Shown in pieces: positions 5,743 through 15,547 of a DNA stretch of 46,570 bases; position 1 is the stretch's first letter, and each line of letters starts with the position of its first letter. A model generated the notes under the pieces. That model searched no databases. It was given only the letters and a program-made list of their open reading frames with translations, and had not been told where the DNA came from. Made by a program: the position numbers and the translations under genes. The stretch lies in the IMG/VR virus record IMGVR_UViG_2537562223_000006; one strand, written 5' to 3'. Origin of the DNA: a virus (Duplodnaviria; Heunggongvirae; Uroviricota; Caudoviricetes).

Positions 5743-6495
5743 TCACACTTCGAATGCCAGTTGAGGGGTAAAGACGTCCCGTTCAGCGTTGTAATTAAGT
5801 GAACTGGCACTGTTGAATGATTCAATGCGTTCCACAAGAACTTGCGTACGGGTTTCTTTACTTGCGGGAGCATATGGCGAACCTACCCAGGATTTGTCGA
5901 TGCCTATATTTCTTGCGACGTTCGTGCTGTCTGCAGACGAAAGCGGTACATGAGTAAAAATGTCTTTATTTAACATCCGTAACCCATGAATCTTGGTGAT
6001 TGGGTAGCCGTACTGATCTACAACATGACGTATAAGATCGCGTAGTTTAGCCCGACACGCTCTCGGTCGTTTTGCATCGTATTCCCCCATCGAGCCGATG
6101 CAGACGCGGGGAAACTCATGGCACAGACGAATAAATCGCTCATCTGGTTCGTTCATGTGCCACACCGGAGCACCAATAAATTTACCGTGAGGCCATGCCG
6201 CAATCAGGGCGTCATTCTCTTCACTGGTTCCGCCGATAACATCCGGGATAACCGCGAATGAGAAACGAGGGTGATTGCCCCAGCGTTCAACAAATCTGTA
6301 ATATTCATTCCAGTCTACGGCCTTGTTTTTTGTCCAGAATGTGAATGCACCATTATCAAGAGCAAATGATTGGGTGACTTCGGAAGCCAGATCAATCTGA
6401 GCTGGATTAGCAAAACTGATGAATGCGTGTCTGCCTTTCCAGGCTTTCAACGCACAGGTATCGGGAGTTATTGGACCACCGTGAAAATGAATCAT
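5743..6495 (-). CDS. Hypothetical early protein, 250 aa, unknown function
   Basis: Uninterrupted ORF (MIHFHGGPITPDTCALKAW..) in the leftward operon directly downstream of exo; no family confidently recognised. Confidence 0.6.
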   Translation of the reverse strand: MIHFHGGPITPDTCALKAWKGRHAFISFANPAQIDLASEVTQSFALDNGAFTFWTKNKAVDWNEYYRFVERWGNHPRFSFAVIPDVIGGTSEENDALIAAWPHGKFIGAPVWHMNEPDERFIRLCHEFPRVCIGSMGEYDAKRPRACRAKLRDLIRHVVDQYGYPITKIHGLRMLNKDIFTHVPLSSADSTNVARNIGIDKSWVGSPYAPASKETRTQVLVERIESFNSASSLNYNAERDVFTPQLAFEV

Positions 6496-8114: not shown

Positions 8115-8411
8115 TTATACCTCTGAATCAATATCAAACTGGTGGTGAGCAATGGTTTCAACCATGTACCGGATGTGTTCTGCCATGCGCTCCTGAAACT
8201 CAACATCGTCATCAAACGCACGGGTAATGGCTTTTTTGCTGGCCCCGTGGCGTTGCAAATGATCGATGCATAGCGATTCAAACAGGTGCTGGGGCAGGCC
8301 TTTTTCCATGTCGTCTGCCAGTTCTGCCTCTTTCTCTTCACGGGCGATCTGCTGGTAGTGACGTGCCCAGCTCTGAGCCTCAAGACGATCCTGAATGTAA
8401 TAAGCGTTCAT
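8115..8411 (-). CDS. gam: Gam (RecBCD inhibitor), short GamS-length form
   Basis: 98 aa [60 protein letters not shown]..; the upstream frame hits a TAA with no start codon, so no long-form N-terminus. Confidence 0.93.
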
Positions 8412-8486
8412 GGCTGAACTCCTGAAAATGGCTGTGAAAATATCGCCCGCGAAATGCCAGGCTGATTAGGAAAACAGGAAAGGGGA

Positions 8487-8777
8487 TTAGTGATTGAGGC
8501 CGTTACCGCGTCCGTCGAGAAAAACTTCCACGAGCAAATCACGGGTATAAGTGCGCTCGATGCCGCGATGCAGATAAAGCCGTCCGCGTAAATTAGCTGA
8601 TGCAGTCCAGGTACCATCTTTGTGTTTGACCAGCATTCCTGGCATGACCGCACCGCGATTAACGGTCTGCGTTCCGTAATGTTGATGAACCATAAAAACT
8701 CCTGCCCGTAAGCTGGGCTGCTGAACATATAGAGACTTCTGCGCGTATTCAGGCGGTGGATGGCCGCCGGTTGTCAT
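8487..8777 (-). CDS. Hypothetical early protein in the kil/cIII position (96 aa from ATG 8777; frame stays open to a TTG at 8897)
   Basis: ATG at 8777 with GAGG RBS; [35 protein letters not shown]..; first gene downstream of the putative PL. Confidence 0.5.
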
Positions 8778-8939
8778 AACTAAGCCGCCTCGTTGAAGCG
8801 ACTGAGGTATAAAGTGTTGTGTTGATTTCAGCTGGTCACACCGACGTTCACGCGTCCGTTTCACCCCTCGCACTCCCCGAAGCCTGCTGAAATTCAAACT
8901 GCGGATCTAAGCGGTCATCGCAACGGTGAAACAGGTGGT

Positions 8940-9060
8940 TACCGTATCGTTGTGTCGTTGCGATGAATTTATTTAAAACTATAGTTGTTTTATCGTCAAC
9001 AACAAAAGTTGTTTTGTCGGTTGTTCTAAATATAACTGGTTGTATTTAGGATGGATTTAT
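8940..9060 (-). promoter_or_regulatory. Putative OL/PL: leftward promoter (-35 TTGACG at 8994-8999, -10 TTAAAT at 8971-8976, 17-bp spacer) embedded in GTTGTT/AACAAC operator palindromes
   Basis: gtcAACAACaaaaGTTGTTttgtcgGTTGTTc repeats; architecture mirrors the OR/PR region (TTGTTGAC..AACAAC.ATAGTTTT). Confidence 0.55.
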
Positions 9061-9124
9061 TTTGTGACTTGCATCGCATAGCGATAACTGAAGTGAGGTG
9101 TGGTGGTTTTTTGGACGGTATGAG

Positions 9125-9165
9125 TTATGAGGGGGAGGAAAAGAAAACCCGGCGCGGTTGCCGGG
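9125..9165 (-). terminator. Rho-independent terminator downstream of the lipoprotein gene (end of cI-lipoprotein transcription unit)
   Basis: Hairpin CCCGGCGCGGTTGCCGGG (9148-9165); on the reverse strand it is followed by TTTTCTTTTCC. Confidence 0.7.
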
Positions 9166-9173
9166 TATGATTA

Positions 9174-9554
9174 TCAGTCAGCCCAACCTGATTTCGAGTT
9201 TATTTGGGTTTCTGACATTGTGTATTTCTTAATCGTGTCATCGTTAAAAAGAATAGTAAGTTCTTTTTTCGTACCGTTCGTTCCATTATGGAATAATCCA
9301 TAGAATGGAATAAAAGTGGTGCCATTAACTTTTACTTTTGCAAAGGCGTACTTCCAGATCTCGTTTCCACTGTCAGTATATGAAACAGCATCAGGAGAAC
9401 CAAAGTAAGATTTAACCTCATTCTTGGTTGTTTTACCTTCCTGAAGTTTAGACTGGACACTAATTTCAGTTTCATTTTTGAGTTGCTGGTTGCCTGAAGA
9501 AGCACACCCAGCCAATACAGATGCCATCATGGCAGCGATTAGGATTTTTCTCAT
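9174..9554 (-). CDS. Lipoprotein (BamE/SmpA-OmlA-like fold suspected), AT-rich moron downstream of cI in the rexAB position
   Basis: Signal peptide with lipobox (MRKILIAAMMASVLAGCASS); 126 aa; same strand as cI and downstream of it; low GC by eye. Confidence 0.75.
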   Translation of the reverse strand: MRKILIAAMMASVLAGCASSGNQQLKNETEISVQSKLQEGKTTKNEVKSYFGSPDAVSYTDSGNEIWKYAFAKVKVNGTTFIPFYGLFHNGTNGTKKELTILFNDDTIKKYTMSETQINSKSGWAD

Positions 9555-9783
9555 TTTATGTTTCCATTCATTATAATCAGAAACATCTTAACATAATGAT
9601 TCGAAATAAAAACCGCTACGAGATAGGGGGACATTTTGCTGACAGTAGCAACAAATCTCAGCTAACAACGAGAATATTTACTGAAATATGCAAACAGATT
9701 TGGCGTTCTTATAGAGAATTTAGTGCAATATCTAATCCGAGTGGTATAAACCTTAACCTTCGCTCCCTTAAGTCGTAGATAAA

Positions 9784-10473
9784 TTAACCATGCTTCCTGT
9801 ACGTCTGCGGCATGCTTCCAATGACCTTACCGAATATGAACACCCGGTTCATCTCGTCTTTCCCGATCGGGTCCCACGGCGAGTAGCTCTTGTTATCAGA
9901 GATAACCAGCAGCTTATCCTTCATCATTTGAAGACGTTTTACATGGGCAGTGTCGTCGTACAGAAACGCATAGATGCCATCACCGTCGAAAGATTTAACA
10001 GTGATATCAACGAACAGCAGGTCACCTGGTTCGATCGTCCCTGACATGCTGTCACCTCGCACGTTAATGATGCGGATATTTTCCGCCTTCCTGCCATCGA
10101 ACATGTGACGAGCATCGTCAAACGAGTACTCAACCGAGCGTAGAACTTCTACAAACTCACGGTTGATTACACCTGGCCCGGCACTGACTTCTATATCAAG
10201 AACGTCAATTTTGAAGTATTTGGAATGGCTGACAGTTGATTGTATTGGTTGCACTGTACTGTCTGACATATTTCCAACGCCAGAAGATAACCATTCTGCG
10301 CGCACACCCAAAGCGTTCGCGATCTCCACGATTTTAGTTGTTTGGTTAGCTTTCCCTGTTTCGATTTTCTGAATAGCAGCCTGGCTAACCCCGACCAAAT
10401 CCCCAAGCGCCTTTTGTGTAAGGCCTCGCGCTAATCTGGCTTCTTTAAGTCTTTCTGAGAGTGTTGTTTTCAT
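9784..10473 (-). CDS. cI: CI-type prophage repressor (N-terminal XRE HTH + C-terminal S24 LexA-like autopeptidase domain)
   Basis: 229 aa; HTH (LTQKALGDLVGVSQAAIQKIETGK); peptidase motifs GDSM and KR; divergent from cro across an operator/promoter region; leaderless-type start. Confidence 0.9.
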   Translation of the reverse strand: MKTTLSERLKEARLARGLTQKALGDLVGVSQAAIQKIETGKANQTTKIVEIANALGVRAEWLSSGVGNMSDSTVQPIQSTVSHSKYFKIDVLDIEVSAGPGVINREFVEVLRSVEYSFDDARHMFDGRKAENIRIINVRGDSMSGTIEPGDLLFVDITVKSFDGDGIYAFLYDDTAHVKRLQMMKDKLLVISDNKSYSPWDPIGKDEMNRVFIFGKVIGSMPQTYRKHG

Positions 10474-10577
10474 AGATCAAATGTACAACCAAGGTTTTAT
10501 TTCATCAAACGAAAATGGTTGTTGACTAAAAACAACCATAGTTTTAATCTTGATTCGGATTAACCACGGAGGTTGTT
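10474..10577. promoter_or_regulatory. OR region: PR (-35 TTGACT 10522-10527, -10 TAATCT 10545-10550), candidate PRM on reverse strand (-35 10503-10508, -10 10480-10485), operator palindrome ATGGTTGTTgactaaaAACAACCAT (10515-10539)
   Basis: Perfect 9-bp-arm inverted repeat overlapping the -35; 17-bp spacers; GGAGG RBS before cro ATG; near-leaderless cI start on the reverse strand. Confidence 0.65.
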
Positions 10578-10808
10578 ATGAACCCAGCAATCAAAACAGC
10601 GATCAATATCGTTGGTTCACAAAAGAAACTAGGCGATGCCTGCGAAGTTTCACAGCAGGCCGTCTATAAGTGGCTTCACAACAAAGCAAAGGTATCCCCT
10701 GAACATGTCGGCAGCATTGTTACGGCTACTGGTGGAGTTGTGAAGGCATACCAGATTCGCCCGGATCTTCCGAAGTTGTTTCCACACACCGAAAAGAACG
10801 CAGCTTAA
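10578..10808 (+). CDS. cro: Cro-like HTH repressor (YdaS/DUF1019-type)
   Basis: 76 aa; HTH (LGDACEVSQQAVYKWLH); divergent from cI across the operators. Confidence 0.8.
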   Translation: MNPAIKTAINIVGSQKKLGDACEVSQQAVYKWLHNKAKVSPEHVGSIVTATGGVVKAYQIRPDLPKLFPHTEKNAA

Positions 10809-10820
10809 ATTTCCATTTCA

Positions 10821-10834
10821 CGCTCTTTAACAAT
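10821..10834 (+). promoter_or_regulatory. boxA-like element (CGCTCTTTAACAAT) downstream of cro; possible nutR-type antitermination site
   Basis: Matches the rrn/lambda boxA consensus (GCTCTTTAACAA) by recall; no obvious boxB hairpin follows. Confidence 0.4.
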
Positions 10835-10877
10835 AAGCAATCAACTTAACAGTCAATTCAAACTAAAGGAGTCAATT

Positions 10878-11417
10878 ATGCAACCACTTACATACCAACA
10901 GACTAGCGGATTTATTCCGACTGCGGTGATAAATCGTTCTCAAACAAAACAAGCTCCAGGCCACGAAAAAATCCGTGATGCCGTCCGCGCCTGGTCGGCT
11001 GTAGATAATCAGGATGTCGTTGCCGCACTCATTGTGAATGAGTATCGGGAGCAGGGCGACGGCATCATCGATTTCCCTGATGATGTCAGCCGTGCACGCC
11101 AGAAGCTGTTCCGCTTCCTCGATAACAAATTCGATTCTGAAAAATACCGAAATAACGTGCGTGAACTGACCCCGGCAATTCTGGCGGTACTACCGCTGGA
11201 ATATCGCGGTTACCTGGTTGAGCAGGATAGCTTCATGACTCGGTTGGCTGAAATGGAAAAGGAACTCAGTGAGGCAAAACAGGCTGTCATTCTCAACGCA
11301 CCACGCCACCAGAAACTGAAGGAAATGAGTGAAGGTATTGTGTCGATGTTTCGTGTGGACCCGGATCTGGCTGGTCCATTAATGGCGATGGTGACCACCA
11401 TGCTGGGGGCAATATGA
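10878..11417 (+). CDS. Regulatory protein in the cII position (YdaT/CII-like family suspected)
   Basis: 179 aa; AGGAG RBS; motif LTPAILAVLPLEYRGYL resembles YdaT-like proteins by recall; sits between cro and O. Confidence 0.5.
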   Translation: MQPLTYQQTSGFIPTAVINRSQTKQAPGHEKIRDAVRAWSAVDNQDVVAALIVNEYREQGDGIIDFPDDVSRARQKLFRFLDNKFDSEKYRNNVRELTPAILAVLPLEYRGYLVEQDSFMTRLAEMEKELSEAKQAVILNAPRHQKLKEMSEGIVSMFRVDPDLAGPLMAMVTTMLGAI

Positions 11418-13914: not shown

Positions 13915-14946
13915 ATGTCCTCGAATATTTTACCTGATGAAAAAGTAATCAATAAAATTGCTGAAAAGTTGAGCGATTATAAATATCCTCCGGCTGAAGG
14001 TATGAACTCTGAACATGTCAGCAAATGGATTAAGCAATTTGCAGTGGAGGATAGACGATTTATCTTAGATGAAACGCTTTATCTACTTAATGCAGGTTAC
14101 CTGTCCGAAAGTCAATATCAACGAAAAATAAAAGCCATTGCAAGAAGTGAAAAGAACGCGAAATTGTTCAGATATGCAGGTTTTTTAGATATTCAAAAAA
14201 AAGGTTCTAGTCAGAAGGAATTGCTTAAATCTCTTTATGAAACAGTAGGGATCAAATTTAACATCGTTACTGAATCATCAACTCAAGATGAAGTAAATAA
14301 ATTTGATACATTTGTATATATTGATGATGTGTCGTTTTCAGGAGAAAAGGCCATCAAATCGATAAGTAATTTTGTTATAAAATTTAATTTAAGAGATATT
14401 AAAGTCAATGTATATTTTTTTTCATCTCATACGTTATCTGACTATAATATAAAAAGACGATTAGAATATATTTTTAAGGATAGAAATATTTTTGTACACG
14501 TGAAGAATGGTGGTATGCGTGAGGTTGAAAACCGAAAAAGTCGTTCTGCTCAATCAGGTGTTTTCTGGCCAAGGAAATATAGTGTAGATACTCCCGAGAA
14601 ATTCGAGGAGTGTGAGCTTTACAAAGGCGTATTCAGAGATGGATATGCCTCTTCTGATAGTTTTAGAAATGAAGCCTCAAGGGATCGTTTCGAATCTATC
14701 CTTACTAAAGTCGGCTTTAATATCTTGCTGCACAGGAAAACCCCTAGTGAGGTGCTCAAACCTCTAGGTTTTTCTACTTTTGACGGTTTGGGTTTTGGGG
14801 GAACAACATTTACTTATCGAAATTGCCCGAATAATGTGCCGCTGGCTTTTTGGTGGGGAGATTATGAACCAACAGGTGCTCCCGCATTGGACTGCTGGTA
14901 TCCACTAATGAAGCGGAATGGGTATAATGAGTGGTATGAGCTATAG
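13915..14946 (+). CDS. Hypothetical 343-aa protein with a possible phosphoribosyltransferase-like PRPP-binding motif (FVYIDDVSFSGEKA); AT-rich moron, gene 1 of a two-gene cassette
   Basis: Long ORF in low-GC DNA; AGGA RBS; motif is a partial match to the hhhhDD..(S/T)G.(S/T) PRTase signature; C-terminal half unassigned. Confidence 0.55.
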   Translation: MSSNILPDEKVINKIAEKLSDYKYPPAEGMNSEHVSKWIKQFAVEDRRFILDETLYLLNAGYLSESQYQRKIKAIARSEKNAKLFRYAGFLDIQKKGSSQKELLKSLYETVGIKFNIVTESSTQDEVNKFDTFVYIDDVSFSGEKAIKSISNFVIKFNLRDIKVNVYFFSSHTLSDYNIKRRLEYIFKDRNIFVHVKNGGMREVENRKSRSAQSGVFWPRKYSVDTPEKFEECELYKGVFRDGYASSDSFRNEASRDRFESILTKVGFNILLHRKTPSEVLKPLGFSTFDGLGFGGTTFTYRNCPNNVPLAFWWGDYEPTGAPALDCWYPLMKRNGYNEWYEL

Positions 14947-15547
14947 ATTATATCCGCTACAGAACACAGTTTCCTTCAGGAAAACCACCGAAAAATGGGG
15001 GGGGCTTTCCAACATGGCTAAAGGGTATCCATTGTTAATCAATGGGTTGCCTATTCAATCAAGTGAAATCCTTTACCAAGCATGCCGATATCCAGACTAT
15101 CCGGATATACAAAAGGCCATCATTACTCAAGGAAACCCCTATGAAGCCAAGCAGACCGCAAGATCGTTTGAATCCAAAACTCGCGCAGGATGGGATAAGA
15201 ATCGAGTTTCGATTATGAAGTGGTGTGTATGCGTAAAATTATGCCAGAACTGGGATACGTTCTTTGCGCTGTTAGACAGTACAGGCGACCATTTCATCGT
15301 GGAACACTCAGAGAAGGACCAATTCTGGGGTGCCAGTAAAGACCCAGAAGGTAACTATTATGGTATGAACGTATTAGGGCGAATTCTCATGGACGTGAGA
15401 GGGGTTGCTAGGAAAAAGGGGGCTGATGGGTTTGCAACAATACCATCGCTATCTTTGGACAAATTTTTTCTCCTAGGCGAGAGAATTAAAGATGTAACAT
15501 TTGTAGAGCCAACGCCTGGAGCAGGGCAAAGTTTATCCTTGTTTTAG
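14927..15547 (+). CDS. NADAR-family protein (YbiA-like, DUF1768; N-glycosidase / ADP-ribose-processing fold), gene 2 of the cassette
   Basis: GGLSNMAKGYPLLINGLPIQSSEILYQACRY and IVEHSEKDQFWGASKDPEGNYYGMNVLGRILMDVR parallel the recalled E. coli YbiA motifs; start overlaps the upstream gene stop. Confidence 0.75.
   Translation: MSGMSYRLYPLQNTVSFRKTTEKWGGLSNMAKGYPLLINGLPIQSSEILYQACRYPDYPDIQKAIITQGNPYEAKQTARSFESKTRAGWDKNRVSIMKWCVCVKLCQNWDTFFALLDSTGDHFIVEHSEKDQFWGASKDPEGNYYGMNVLGRILMDVRGVARKKGADGFATIPSLSLDKFFLLGERIKDVTFVEPTPGAGQSLSLF

Follow-up and report, generated by a model that had tools for sequence, protein, structure and literature searches.

The window analyzed here is a 46,570-nucleotide stretch of viral DNA (Caudoviricetes; IMG/VR record IMGVR_UViG_2537562223_000006), and its feature under study is a gene for a small predicted lipoprotein located next to the phage repressor gene. 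The window is a lambda-like temperate phage, essentially Escherichia phage PhiR26_1 (PV340555.1), with which it is 99.9% identical over positions 9100-10500. A literature search revealed no paper that names PhiR26_1 or describes its lipoprotein. The gene next upstream of the lipoprotein gene (9784..10473) matched PHROG 4, defined as 'transcriptional repressor', and is called cI in the PhiR26_1 annotation; a YdaS-type cro and then a YdaT-type cII are divergent from it. The end of cI and the lipoprotein ATG are separated by 229 nucleotides (nt) on the same strand, and a scan of the window detected no terminator-like site in this gap. A preliminary description of this DNA had placed the gene downstream of cI on the same strand, which agrees with an S24/helix-turn-helix (HTH) repressor 229 nt upstream of its ATG.

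Repeats near 8971-9049 recur in inverted orientation between cI and cro (for example, 8973-8991 versus 10529-10547, 95% complementary). These operator-like repeats place the leftward operator and promoter (OL/PL) at approximately 8971-9049, and the lipoprotein gene is therefore located between cI and OL/PL. In lambda, the same slot is occupied by rexAB. The suggestion that the gene is in a rexAB-equivalent position was thus supported, as it lies between cI and the terminator and OL/PL, on the cI strand. The two loci share this slot upstream of OL/PL and its variable cargo, whereas RexAB is a two-protein cytoplasmic/inner-membrane abortive-infection system and a single secreted lipoprotein is encoded here. 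Searches of the lipoprotein against Pfam, PHROGs and PADLOC gave no matches to RexA or RexB, so that only the position is shared.

The cI-cargo unit ends at an intrinsic terminator, in which a 7-bp stem (6 GC pairs) precedes TTTTCTTTTC at 9147-9138. The hairpin has a folding energy of -14.1 kcal/mol (z = -2.7), a stability reached by 1 of 200 shuffled sequences. The same hairpin was found in phage Turner, directly after a short spacer and without the lipoprotein cargo, and a similar hairpin is present in Enterobacter cassettes. Because it is common to phages without the cargo, we assign this terminator to the phage backbone, where it appears to act as the terminator of the immunity operon. The clean terminator that had been assigned to the lipoprotein gene at 9125-9165 is therefore real and its coordinates are close (9138-9166), but it appears to be a shared part of the phage and not of the cargo.

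To define the cassette limits, we used blastn against phages with nearly the same cI allele, i.e., Turner, PhiR5_1 and Perceval. In all three, homology covers only positions 8000-9165/9166 and 9784/9785-10600. Turner carries 122 nt where the window has the 617-bp cassette, PhiR5_1 has a HipA/'HipD' (HipA-like) pair, and Perceval (locus L103, 1827-3377, minus strand) has genes for a 340-residue protein (PHROG 3482) and a 168-residue transmembrane protein (PHROG 16807). The latter pair is reminiscent of RexA/RexB in size and architecture. As in other morons, the DNA is added (617 bp versus 122 nt in Turner) and deviates in base composition (36% GC versus 51%). The region between cI and OL/PL thus appears to be a variable cargo slot, and the lipoprotein cassette a discrete replaceable cargo. 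Coordinates of these features are shown in Table 1. The spacer of ~180 nt between cI and the leader had a match among phages only in PhiR26_1, and homologous cassettes align only up to 9594-9607. It contains no convincing open reading frame (ORF) and no Rfam family, and an Rfam search of the region 8400-10900 likewise returned nothing credible.

Table 1. Coordinates of features in and around the lipoprotein cassette of the window.
Feature	Position	Strand	Basis or remark
OL/PL region	8971..9049 (about)	-	operator-like repeats D1, D4, I2, I3, I10, I11
Candidate PL	TTGACG 8999-8994, spacing 17, TTAAAT 8976-8971	-	inferred by reading the sequence
Intrinsic terminator	9138..9166	-	stem 9166-9147 and T-run; ends the cI-cargo transcription unit
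Replaceable low-GC cargo cassette, 617 bp	9167..9783		loss of blastn homology versus phages with the same cI
Coding sequence, lipoprotein precursor	9174..9554	-	126 residues, stop codon included in the coordinates; PHROG 3135
Lipobox codons L14-A15-G16-C17	9504..9515	-	Cys17 predicted to be lipidated and to start the mature protein
Conserved leader of ~45 nt upstream of ATG, TGTTAAGATGTTTCTGATTATAATGAATGGAAACATAAA	9555..9599	-	alignment of homologue upstream sequences
Shine-Dalgarno-like GGAAAC	9560..9565	-	kept as (A/T)GGAAAC in leaders
TATAAT	9570..9575	-	window-specific variant of the palindrome center; 3' end 15 nt from ATG
Candidate extended -10, TG-T-TAAGAT (TGTTAAGAT)	9585..9593	-	-35 missing in the window
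AT-rich spacer, cI stop to conserved leader	9600..9783	-	not conserved, no predicted terminator
cI-type repressor, 229 residues	9784..10473	-	HTH_3 5e-13, Peptidase_S24 3e-18; PHROG 4 2e-72
OR operator repeats between cI and cro	10485..10547		repeat D6 and hairpin 10515-10539

The translated N-terminus of the precursor, MRKILIAAMMASVLAGC, has a positively charged n-region, a hydrophobic core and the lipobox L-A-G-C. The signal peptide can be split as MRK-ILIAAMMASV-LAGC, which satisfies the lipobox pattern [LVI][ASTVI][GAS]C; the match to LPAM_1 was weak. The mature protein of 110 residues starts with C-A-S-S, with Ala and not Asp at position +2. Under the E. coli +2 (Lol) rule, lipoproteins without Asp at this position are sorted to the outer membrane, and because the +2 residue is Ala, the phage protein should be sorted there as well. 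The same gene was named 'putative lipoprotein' by the annotators of PhiR26_1. Its GC content is 38% (36.3% for the cassette 9167-9783), compared with 47% for cI and 51.3% for the whole window. A lipoprotein with an LAGC lipobox in low-GC DNA, as first described, is thus confirmed (ORF 9174..9554, Cys17, 36-38% GC).

We compared the gene with nine homologues from Salmonella, Citrobacter, Enterobacter, Serratia and others. The values of pN (nonsynonymous) were 0.09-0.20 and those of pS (synonymous) 0.72-1.0 (saturated), with dN/dS of ~0.06 where it could be calculated. In addition, 78 E. coli genomes and 23 viral contigs carry an uninterrupted ORF whose sequence is the same or almost the same. 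These data argue that the lipoprotein gene is real and under strong purifying selection.

The protein matched PHROG 3135 over its full length (E-value 2.9e-48, residues 1-124 on positions 1-114 of the 114-position profile). In a database clustered at 90% identity we detected 228 relatives, mostly of 126 residues and 70-100% identical, in many Enterobacterales, and an exhaustive search yielded 1332 representatives (50% identity, E ≤ 1e-3). Most RefSeq records name the protein 'outer membrane protein assembly factor BamE'. However, a recent RefSeq E. coli genome with the same cI-lipoprotein locus lists the product as 'SEN1984 family lipoprotein' (WP_001226568.1, matched by locus). A scan of NCBIfam release 20.0 returned no SEN1984-family model; the matches obtained (Ag473, TrsH and others) covered the signal peptide only, were all far below cut-offs and were rejected. 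Thus, this is a large proteobacterial family that is already present in databases as an uncharacterized one, PHROG 3135 or SEN1984 family lipoprotein. Conservation and BamE matching within it were assessed on 86 relatives. In their alignment, Cys17 and Gly52 are invariant, and G21-N22, P54, W67, Y69, P83 and F103 are nearly so.

The preliminary description had also raised a kinship with BamE and SmpA/OmlA, and profile and fold searches proved this guess correct at the level of domain and fold. The Pfam BamE model (PF04355) gave 21.8 bits, which is under its gathering cut-off of 23.2 bits, and was matched by 73 of the 86 relatives at E ≤ 0.01. With hhalign, the probability of homology to E. coli BamE was 92.9% (E-value 3.6e-7). 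An AlphaFold2 model (mean predicted local confidence, pLDDT, 88.5) showed a pair of helices lying against a sheet of long strands, i.e., the alpha-alpha-beta-beta-beta arrangement of BamE in a BamE/BLIP-like domain, and the top 7 Foldseek matches were all BamE chains in complexes of the beta-barrel assembly machinery (BAM). A search of the Protein Data Bank (PDB) with the family profile gave marginal BamE matches (E-value ~0.02), and one with the single protein sequence gave nothing meaningful. Finally, a fold search of BFVD yielded weak matches to Pseudomonas phage SmpA/OmlA proteins, none of known function.

It is therefore natural to ask if the protein is a BAM modulator, that is, a BamE paralogue which binds BamA/BamD in place of or beside BamE and thereby changes the assembly of outer-membrane proteins (e.g., with lower porin or receptor levels or altered RcsF signaling), any phage-resistance or stress phenotype being indirect. 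The homology to BamE is true, the closest structures are BamE within BAM complexes, and the name in RefSeq is consistent with such a role. The two proteins are both lipoproteins with the same homologous domain, including the G-x-T-x-x-x-V...G-x-P...W-x-Y motifs. However, the domain of the phage protein starts ~3 residues past the lipidated Cys, which leaves a very short tether. The hhalign alignment has a 7-residue gap at the BamE N-terminal segment, with ~3 residues from Cys17 to G21-N22, so that most of this segment (E. coli residues ~22-37) is missing. In BamE, this segment contributes to the contact with BamD/BamA. The phage protein also has longer strands and a 13-residue insertion between strands that is not found in BamE and carries a conserved FIPFYGLF (modeled with low confidence), and its Pfam score is below the cut-off. 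In addition, bamE is a core chromosomal single-copy gene and the host already has it, whereas this gene is prophage cargo, present in ~1.4% of the complete E. coli genomes searched (78 of 5426). We thus consider a BAM modulator of this kind improbable. Because of the structural differences, the limited occurrence and the bamE of the host itself, the protein is a BamE-fold homologue and not a BamE orthologue, and the 'BamE' label in RefSeq, a domain-level annotation, is therefore probably misleading. More distant proteins, including BLIP/BLP, BtiO, OsmE, the N-terminal domain of TpgA and YjgB (DUF4309), are kin in fold only (11-22% identity). They have other domain architectures, and phage immunity regions are not known to encode any of them.

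We then analyzed where relatives of the gene are located, using the best 80 of 156 IMG/VR viral contigs with relatives, all 80 of which were at least 79% identical (the locus search was run with a closer alignment, A3, the first alignment, A2, being too diverse). In 51 of the 80 contigs the gene is downstream of an S24 repressor and on the same strand. Among these 51, the 230-nt arrangement of the window occurs in 23, and the gap is only 48-49 nt and operon-like in 14. In Citrobacter and Enterobacter prophages, the S24 repressor is always upstream on the same strand, sometimes with one or two unknown genes between. These prophages also have a conserved ORF of 68-76 residues (PHROG 3975), convergent and located ~30-130 nt past the lipoprotein stop codon, which is absent from the window. 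Neighboring cargo was toxin/defense-like (HipA-like, SocA_Panacea, YafO and KilA-N).

A second location, seen in 18 of 80 contigs, was immediately in front of an ORF exceeding 600 residues, a length expected of tape-measure genes; the remaining 11 could not be assigned to either slot. Copies in front of tape-measure genes were also detected in Serratia prophages (71% identity), Klebsiella phage RAH1 (47%) and a 48-kb myovirus-like E. coli plasmid. The prototype moron, HK97 gene 15, which encodes a superinfection-exclusion protein, occupies this position (PMC3594210). Close relatives of our gene share this slot with HK97 gene 15 (YebO-derived), and both encode envelope proteins of bacterial origin, whereas gp15 is a small inner-membrane protein, the present one is a predicted outer-membrane lipoprotein, and the gene of the window is in the cI slot.

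One of the neighboring tape-measure genes carries a lytic transglycosylase domain. With several phages placing the gene beside tape-measure genes, the protein might be a periplasmic inhibitor or immunity protein, similar to BLIP (beta-lactamase inhibitor) or BtiO (immunity in type VI secretion, T6SS), that binds and neutralizes an incoming enzyme, such as a tail-associated peptidoglycan hydrolase of a phage, a colicin or a T6SS effector. However, the likeness to these proteins is limited to fold level at the identities given above, BLIP is a tandem two-domain protein and the phage protein has just one domain, which is anchored directly at the membrane, and no cognate effector gene was seen nearby. 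This explanation thus appears quite improbable.

Members of the family were also found on other mobile elements. For example, one is located near traG on Burkholderia glumae conjugative plasmids (p82s4p, locus L187, 5986-6384, 46% identity), and another near parAB on a metagenomic contig. The Burkholderia plasmid member is present in more than 100 records, mostly conjugative plasmids, in a block with traG, zeta toxin, phospholipase D, DsbD-N and a YadA-like adhesin. SEN1984, a lipoprotein gene of 378 bp with a BamE-like predicted product, is part of the excisable island ROD21 of Salmonella Enteritidis (PMC10655114, PMC3198454). It belongs to the same family as the phage lipoprotein; however, it is located in an excisable, mobilizable island and not in a phage immunity region. 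The distribution as a whole suggests an old cellular lipoprotein family that has been captured repeatedly by mobile elements. A separate observation concerns Moraxella species and a Limibaculum metagenome-assembled genome, in which a member was detected within the atp operon, flanked by the gamma and beta subunit genes (loci L076, L077, L079, L087 and L098, ~6000-6380). The ATP synthase operon is an odd setting for a lipoprotein gene.

Upstream of the ATG, conservation among cassettes is limited to a leader of 45 nt with the consensus TGTTA(A/G)GATGTTTC(C/T)GATTGCAATCAA(A/T)GGAAAC. In homologues, it is part of a promoter-like element, TTGA(C/T)C-16-TG-n-TA(A/G)GAT, which is often preceded by a terminator hairpin. 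The promoter scan flagged TTGACC-16-TAAGAT/TAGGAT with the TG in two loci (L005 and L104) and not in the window. Compared with homologues, the window has a 7-nt deletion which removed the -35 hexamer, and the upstream hairpin has decayed; the extended -10 remains. The preliminary description had noted a TATAAT ~25 nt upstream of the ATG. The hexamer is present, at 9575-9570 on the minus strand, but the distance is 15 nt, and the idea that it is the gene's own promoter did not hold. It arose by three substitutions in the palindrome GATTGCAATC, where homologues read TGCAAT, and the promoter scan detected no minus-strand promoter at this site, the -35 partner being absent. Because it is window-specific, has no -35 and implies a transcript that begins within or beyond the Shine-Dalgarno sequence, for which it leaves no room, we do not regard TATAAT as the promoter of this gene. 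A good promoter-like site was instead seen on the plus strand, TTCTCA-18-TATAAT at 9548-9577 (10 of 12 matches in the scan), because ATTATAAT equals its own reverse complement. This site is directed away from the lipoprotein gene, across the unique spacer, and antisense to the 3' end of cI. In a different lambdoid prophage, a small RNA (svsR) has been reported from the cI 3' end; the paper does not mention the present gene (PMC12803456). We also considered a hairpin in the leader RNA that sequesters the Shine-Dalgarno sequence. This candidate was rejected, as it was no better than shuffled sequences (z from -0.02 to -1.6), with z = -2.1 only for a longer, window-specific fold. In a Citrobacter leader variant, both hairpin arms are changed without compensation, as judged by eye.

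Since no terminator was found in the gap downstream of cI, transcripts from the cI promoter could, structurally, extend into the lipoprotein gene; loss of the upstream terminator in the window would have opened the gene to such read-through. Expression of the lipoprotein gene in the lysogen is thus plausible, most likely by read-through from cI, possibly helped by the extended -10. An opposite view is that the cassette lost its promoter and the gene is a decaying, unexpressed passenger. The degraded -35 hexamer and upstream terminator hairpin, together with the lack of any hit of the promoter scan on the strand of the gene, are what would be seen in a silent remnant. However, an uninterrupted ORF with few or no differences is kept in the 78 E. 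coli genomes and 23 viral contigs mentioned above, purifying selection is strong, the Shine-Dalgarno sequence and extended -10 are kept, and the lost terminator itself exposes the gene to cI read-through. We therefore view a silent remnant as very improbable.

The leader is not restricted to this family. A pattern scan revealed its consensus in at least 120 viral contigs, and in all 80 that were fetched (L189-L268) a lipoprotein ORF was present within ~20 nt. These 80 included 11 BamE-like proteins, ~60 members of PHROG 7441, 6 of a 227-residue family and 1 other (single contig). PHROG 7441 is an unrelated lipoprotein of 118 residues, located behind the leader in the pre-tape-measure region of Salmonella phage S107 and Cronobacter phages; it was also found downstream of an S24 repressor in 11 of the 80 contigs. 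Phage S107 has two leader-lipoprotein cassettes. The full shared element can be written as TTGA(C/T)C-16-TGTTA(A/G)GAT-GTTTCCGATTGCAATCAA(A/T)GGAAAC-ATG, and instances include 9555-9599 (minus strand) of the window, 2488-2545 of L104 and 2501-2541 of L105. Of the 80 leaders, 74 have T at -15 (the G at -14, with which it forms TG, is set by the pattern used in the search), and 38 have a -35 hexamer that matches at 4 or more of its 6 positions. The signal peptides behind the leader look alike across the lipoprotein families. In complete E. coli genomes, the 30 of 69 leader matches that were listed were all at the BamE-like lipoprotein gene described here. The occurrence of one leader in front of at least 3-4 unrelated families suggests a common regulatory module for prophage lipoprotein cargo.

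What might the lipoprotein do? The preliminary description predicted a superinfection-exclusion or envelope-modifying function, and from the position of the gene a role in superinfection exclusion or in the envelope is plausible. We tentatively favor, at somewhat less than an even chance, a model in which the protein excludes phages by acting on an outer-membrane barrel or on BAM. In the lysogen, it would be transcribed by read-through from the cI promoter, to which the residual extended -10 in the leader may add. It would then be anchored in the inner leaflet of the outer membrane, held tight to the membrane, and bind the periplasmic face of an outer-membrane beta-barrel, such as a phage receptor, a porin or the BAM complex. 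The resulting change in the cell surface or envelope may keep out incoming phages and perhaps other mobile elements as well. Two proteins of this fold, BamE and TpgA, are parts of beta-barrel complexes in the outer membrane. Family members were found repeatedly on mobile elements (two lysogen-expressed moron slots of temperate phages, conjugative plasmids and an excisable island) as well as on chromosomes. Both phage slots are known for exclusion or abortive-infection cargo, and the neighboring cargo is toxin/defense-like, which would favor the exclusion model. Several small phage lipoproteins exclude phages via outer-membrane receptors. Llp of T5 and Cor are outer-membrane lipoproteins that block FhuA from the periplasmic side, and they serve as our working analogy. 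However, the present protein has no second cysteine (Llp, 7.09 kDa when mature, has an essential internal disulfide), differs in size, and has an unrelated fold with no structural match. Similarly, Lpp021 and Lpp010 of mEp phages are outer-membrane lipoproteins from structural-gene slots that were shown to exclude phages (PMC11893012). Prophage lipoprotein morons are already known, and the fold of this one differs from those of Cor/Llp, Bor and TraT.

It should be noted, however, that several observations weigh against exclusion as the function. PADLOC (PADLOC-DB 2.0) matched no family to the lipoprotein at E ≤ 0.1, and our literature search found no experiment on any member of the family, SEN1984 included. 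Phage copies from different genera, whose phages do not use the same receptors, have 70-100% identity. The C-terminus of the window's tail protein J is 89% identical to that of phage 434 and 53% to that of lambda, and J of phage 434 is OmpC-dependent. Perceval has the same 434-like J C-terminus with other cargo, and the lipoprotein gene also occurs in the myovirus-like element. Masking of the phage's own receptor, which we had considered, is therefore weakened, as comparison of J C-termini revealed no linkage of cargo to receptor type. With regard to expression, the -35 and the upstream terminator of the cassette have decayed in the window, and in other relatives the upstream terminator would block read-through from cI. 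Moreover, outside Enterobacterales the neighbors are mostly housekeeping genes, which suggests that the ancestral role was cellular and not anti-phage.

These same observations bear on the possibility that the protein is a host-fitness or lysogenic-conversion factor which, like lambda Bor or OsmE, strengthens or remodels the envelope independently of phages and affects osmotic, bile, serum or antibiotic tolerance or virulence. The wide presence of the family in chromosomes next to housekeeping genes, the SEN1984 member in the excisable pathogenicity island ROD21, strong conservation of sequence across genera and the lack of linkage between cargo and tail receptor-binding type are all consistent with it. 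On the other hand, both phage slots are best known for anti-phage cargo (rexAB and HK97 gene 15), the cargo neighbors are toxin/defense-like, and the Pfam search did not match the protein to Bor/Iss or to any other fitness lipoprotein already known. We regard a fitness factor as unlikely on balance, but as an explanation to be taken seriously.

The exclusion model can be extended to the shared leader. A portable module consisting of a sigma-70 promoter and a palindromic leader, possibly with the signal peptide, might be placed before unrelated lipoproteins in both moron slots and so form an interchangeable toolkit for exclusion at the outer membrane, the BamE-like member of which would clamp a beta-barrel or BAM from the periplasm. 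We consider this extended version rather doubtful; if correct, it would add a new fold, and possibly a new target, to superinfection exclusion. In a search for a link between PHROG 7441 and the experimentally tested mEp Lpp exclusion proteins, no mEp phage was present among the PHROG 7441 matches.

Prophage genes adjacent to the repressor are among the few that are expressed in lysogens, and they repeatedly encode defense or conversion functions, e.g., rexAB. The cassette described here is a compact and testable candidate, as it consists of one conserved 110-residue lipoprotein that occurs on phages, plasmids, an excisable island and in many Enterobacterales. If it mediates exclusion, it would represent a new structural class with probably a new envelope target and would bear on host range in phage therapy. 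If it modulates BAM or the envelope, a virus would be re-using a subunit of the barrel-assembly machinery. The shared leader provides a simple sequence handle for finding further prophage envelope factors.

Two other regions of the window are of interest. Between the candidate PL and the first leftward gene (8487-8971, minus strand), no N-like antiterminator ORF was apparent, and the leftward early region opens directly with kil (Kil in the PhiR26_1 annotation), followed by gam, bet and exo. At 13915-15547 (plus strand), downstream of the replication and ren genes, two adjacent ORFs of 343 and 209 residues matched the PADLOC models PRTase_III-A (1e-10) and PDC-M42C (1.5e-8). The PhiR26_1 annotation lists 'PD-lambda-1' nearby, and this region is probably a second defense cargo site.

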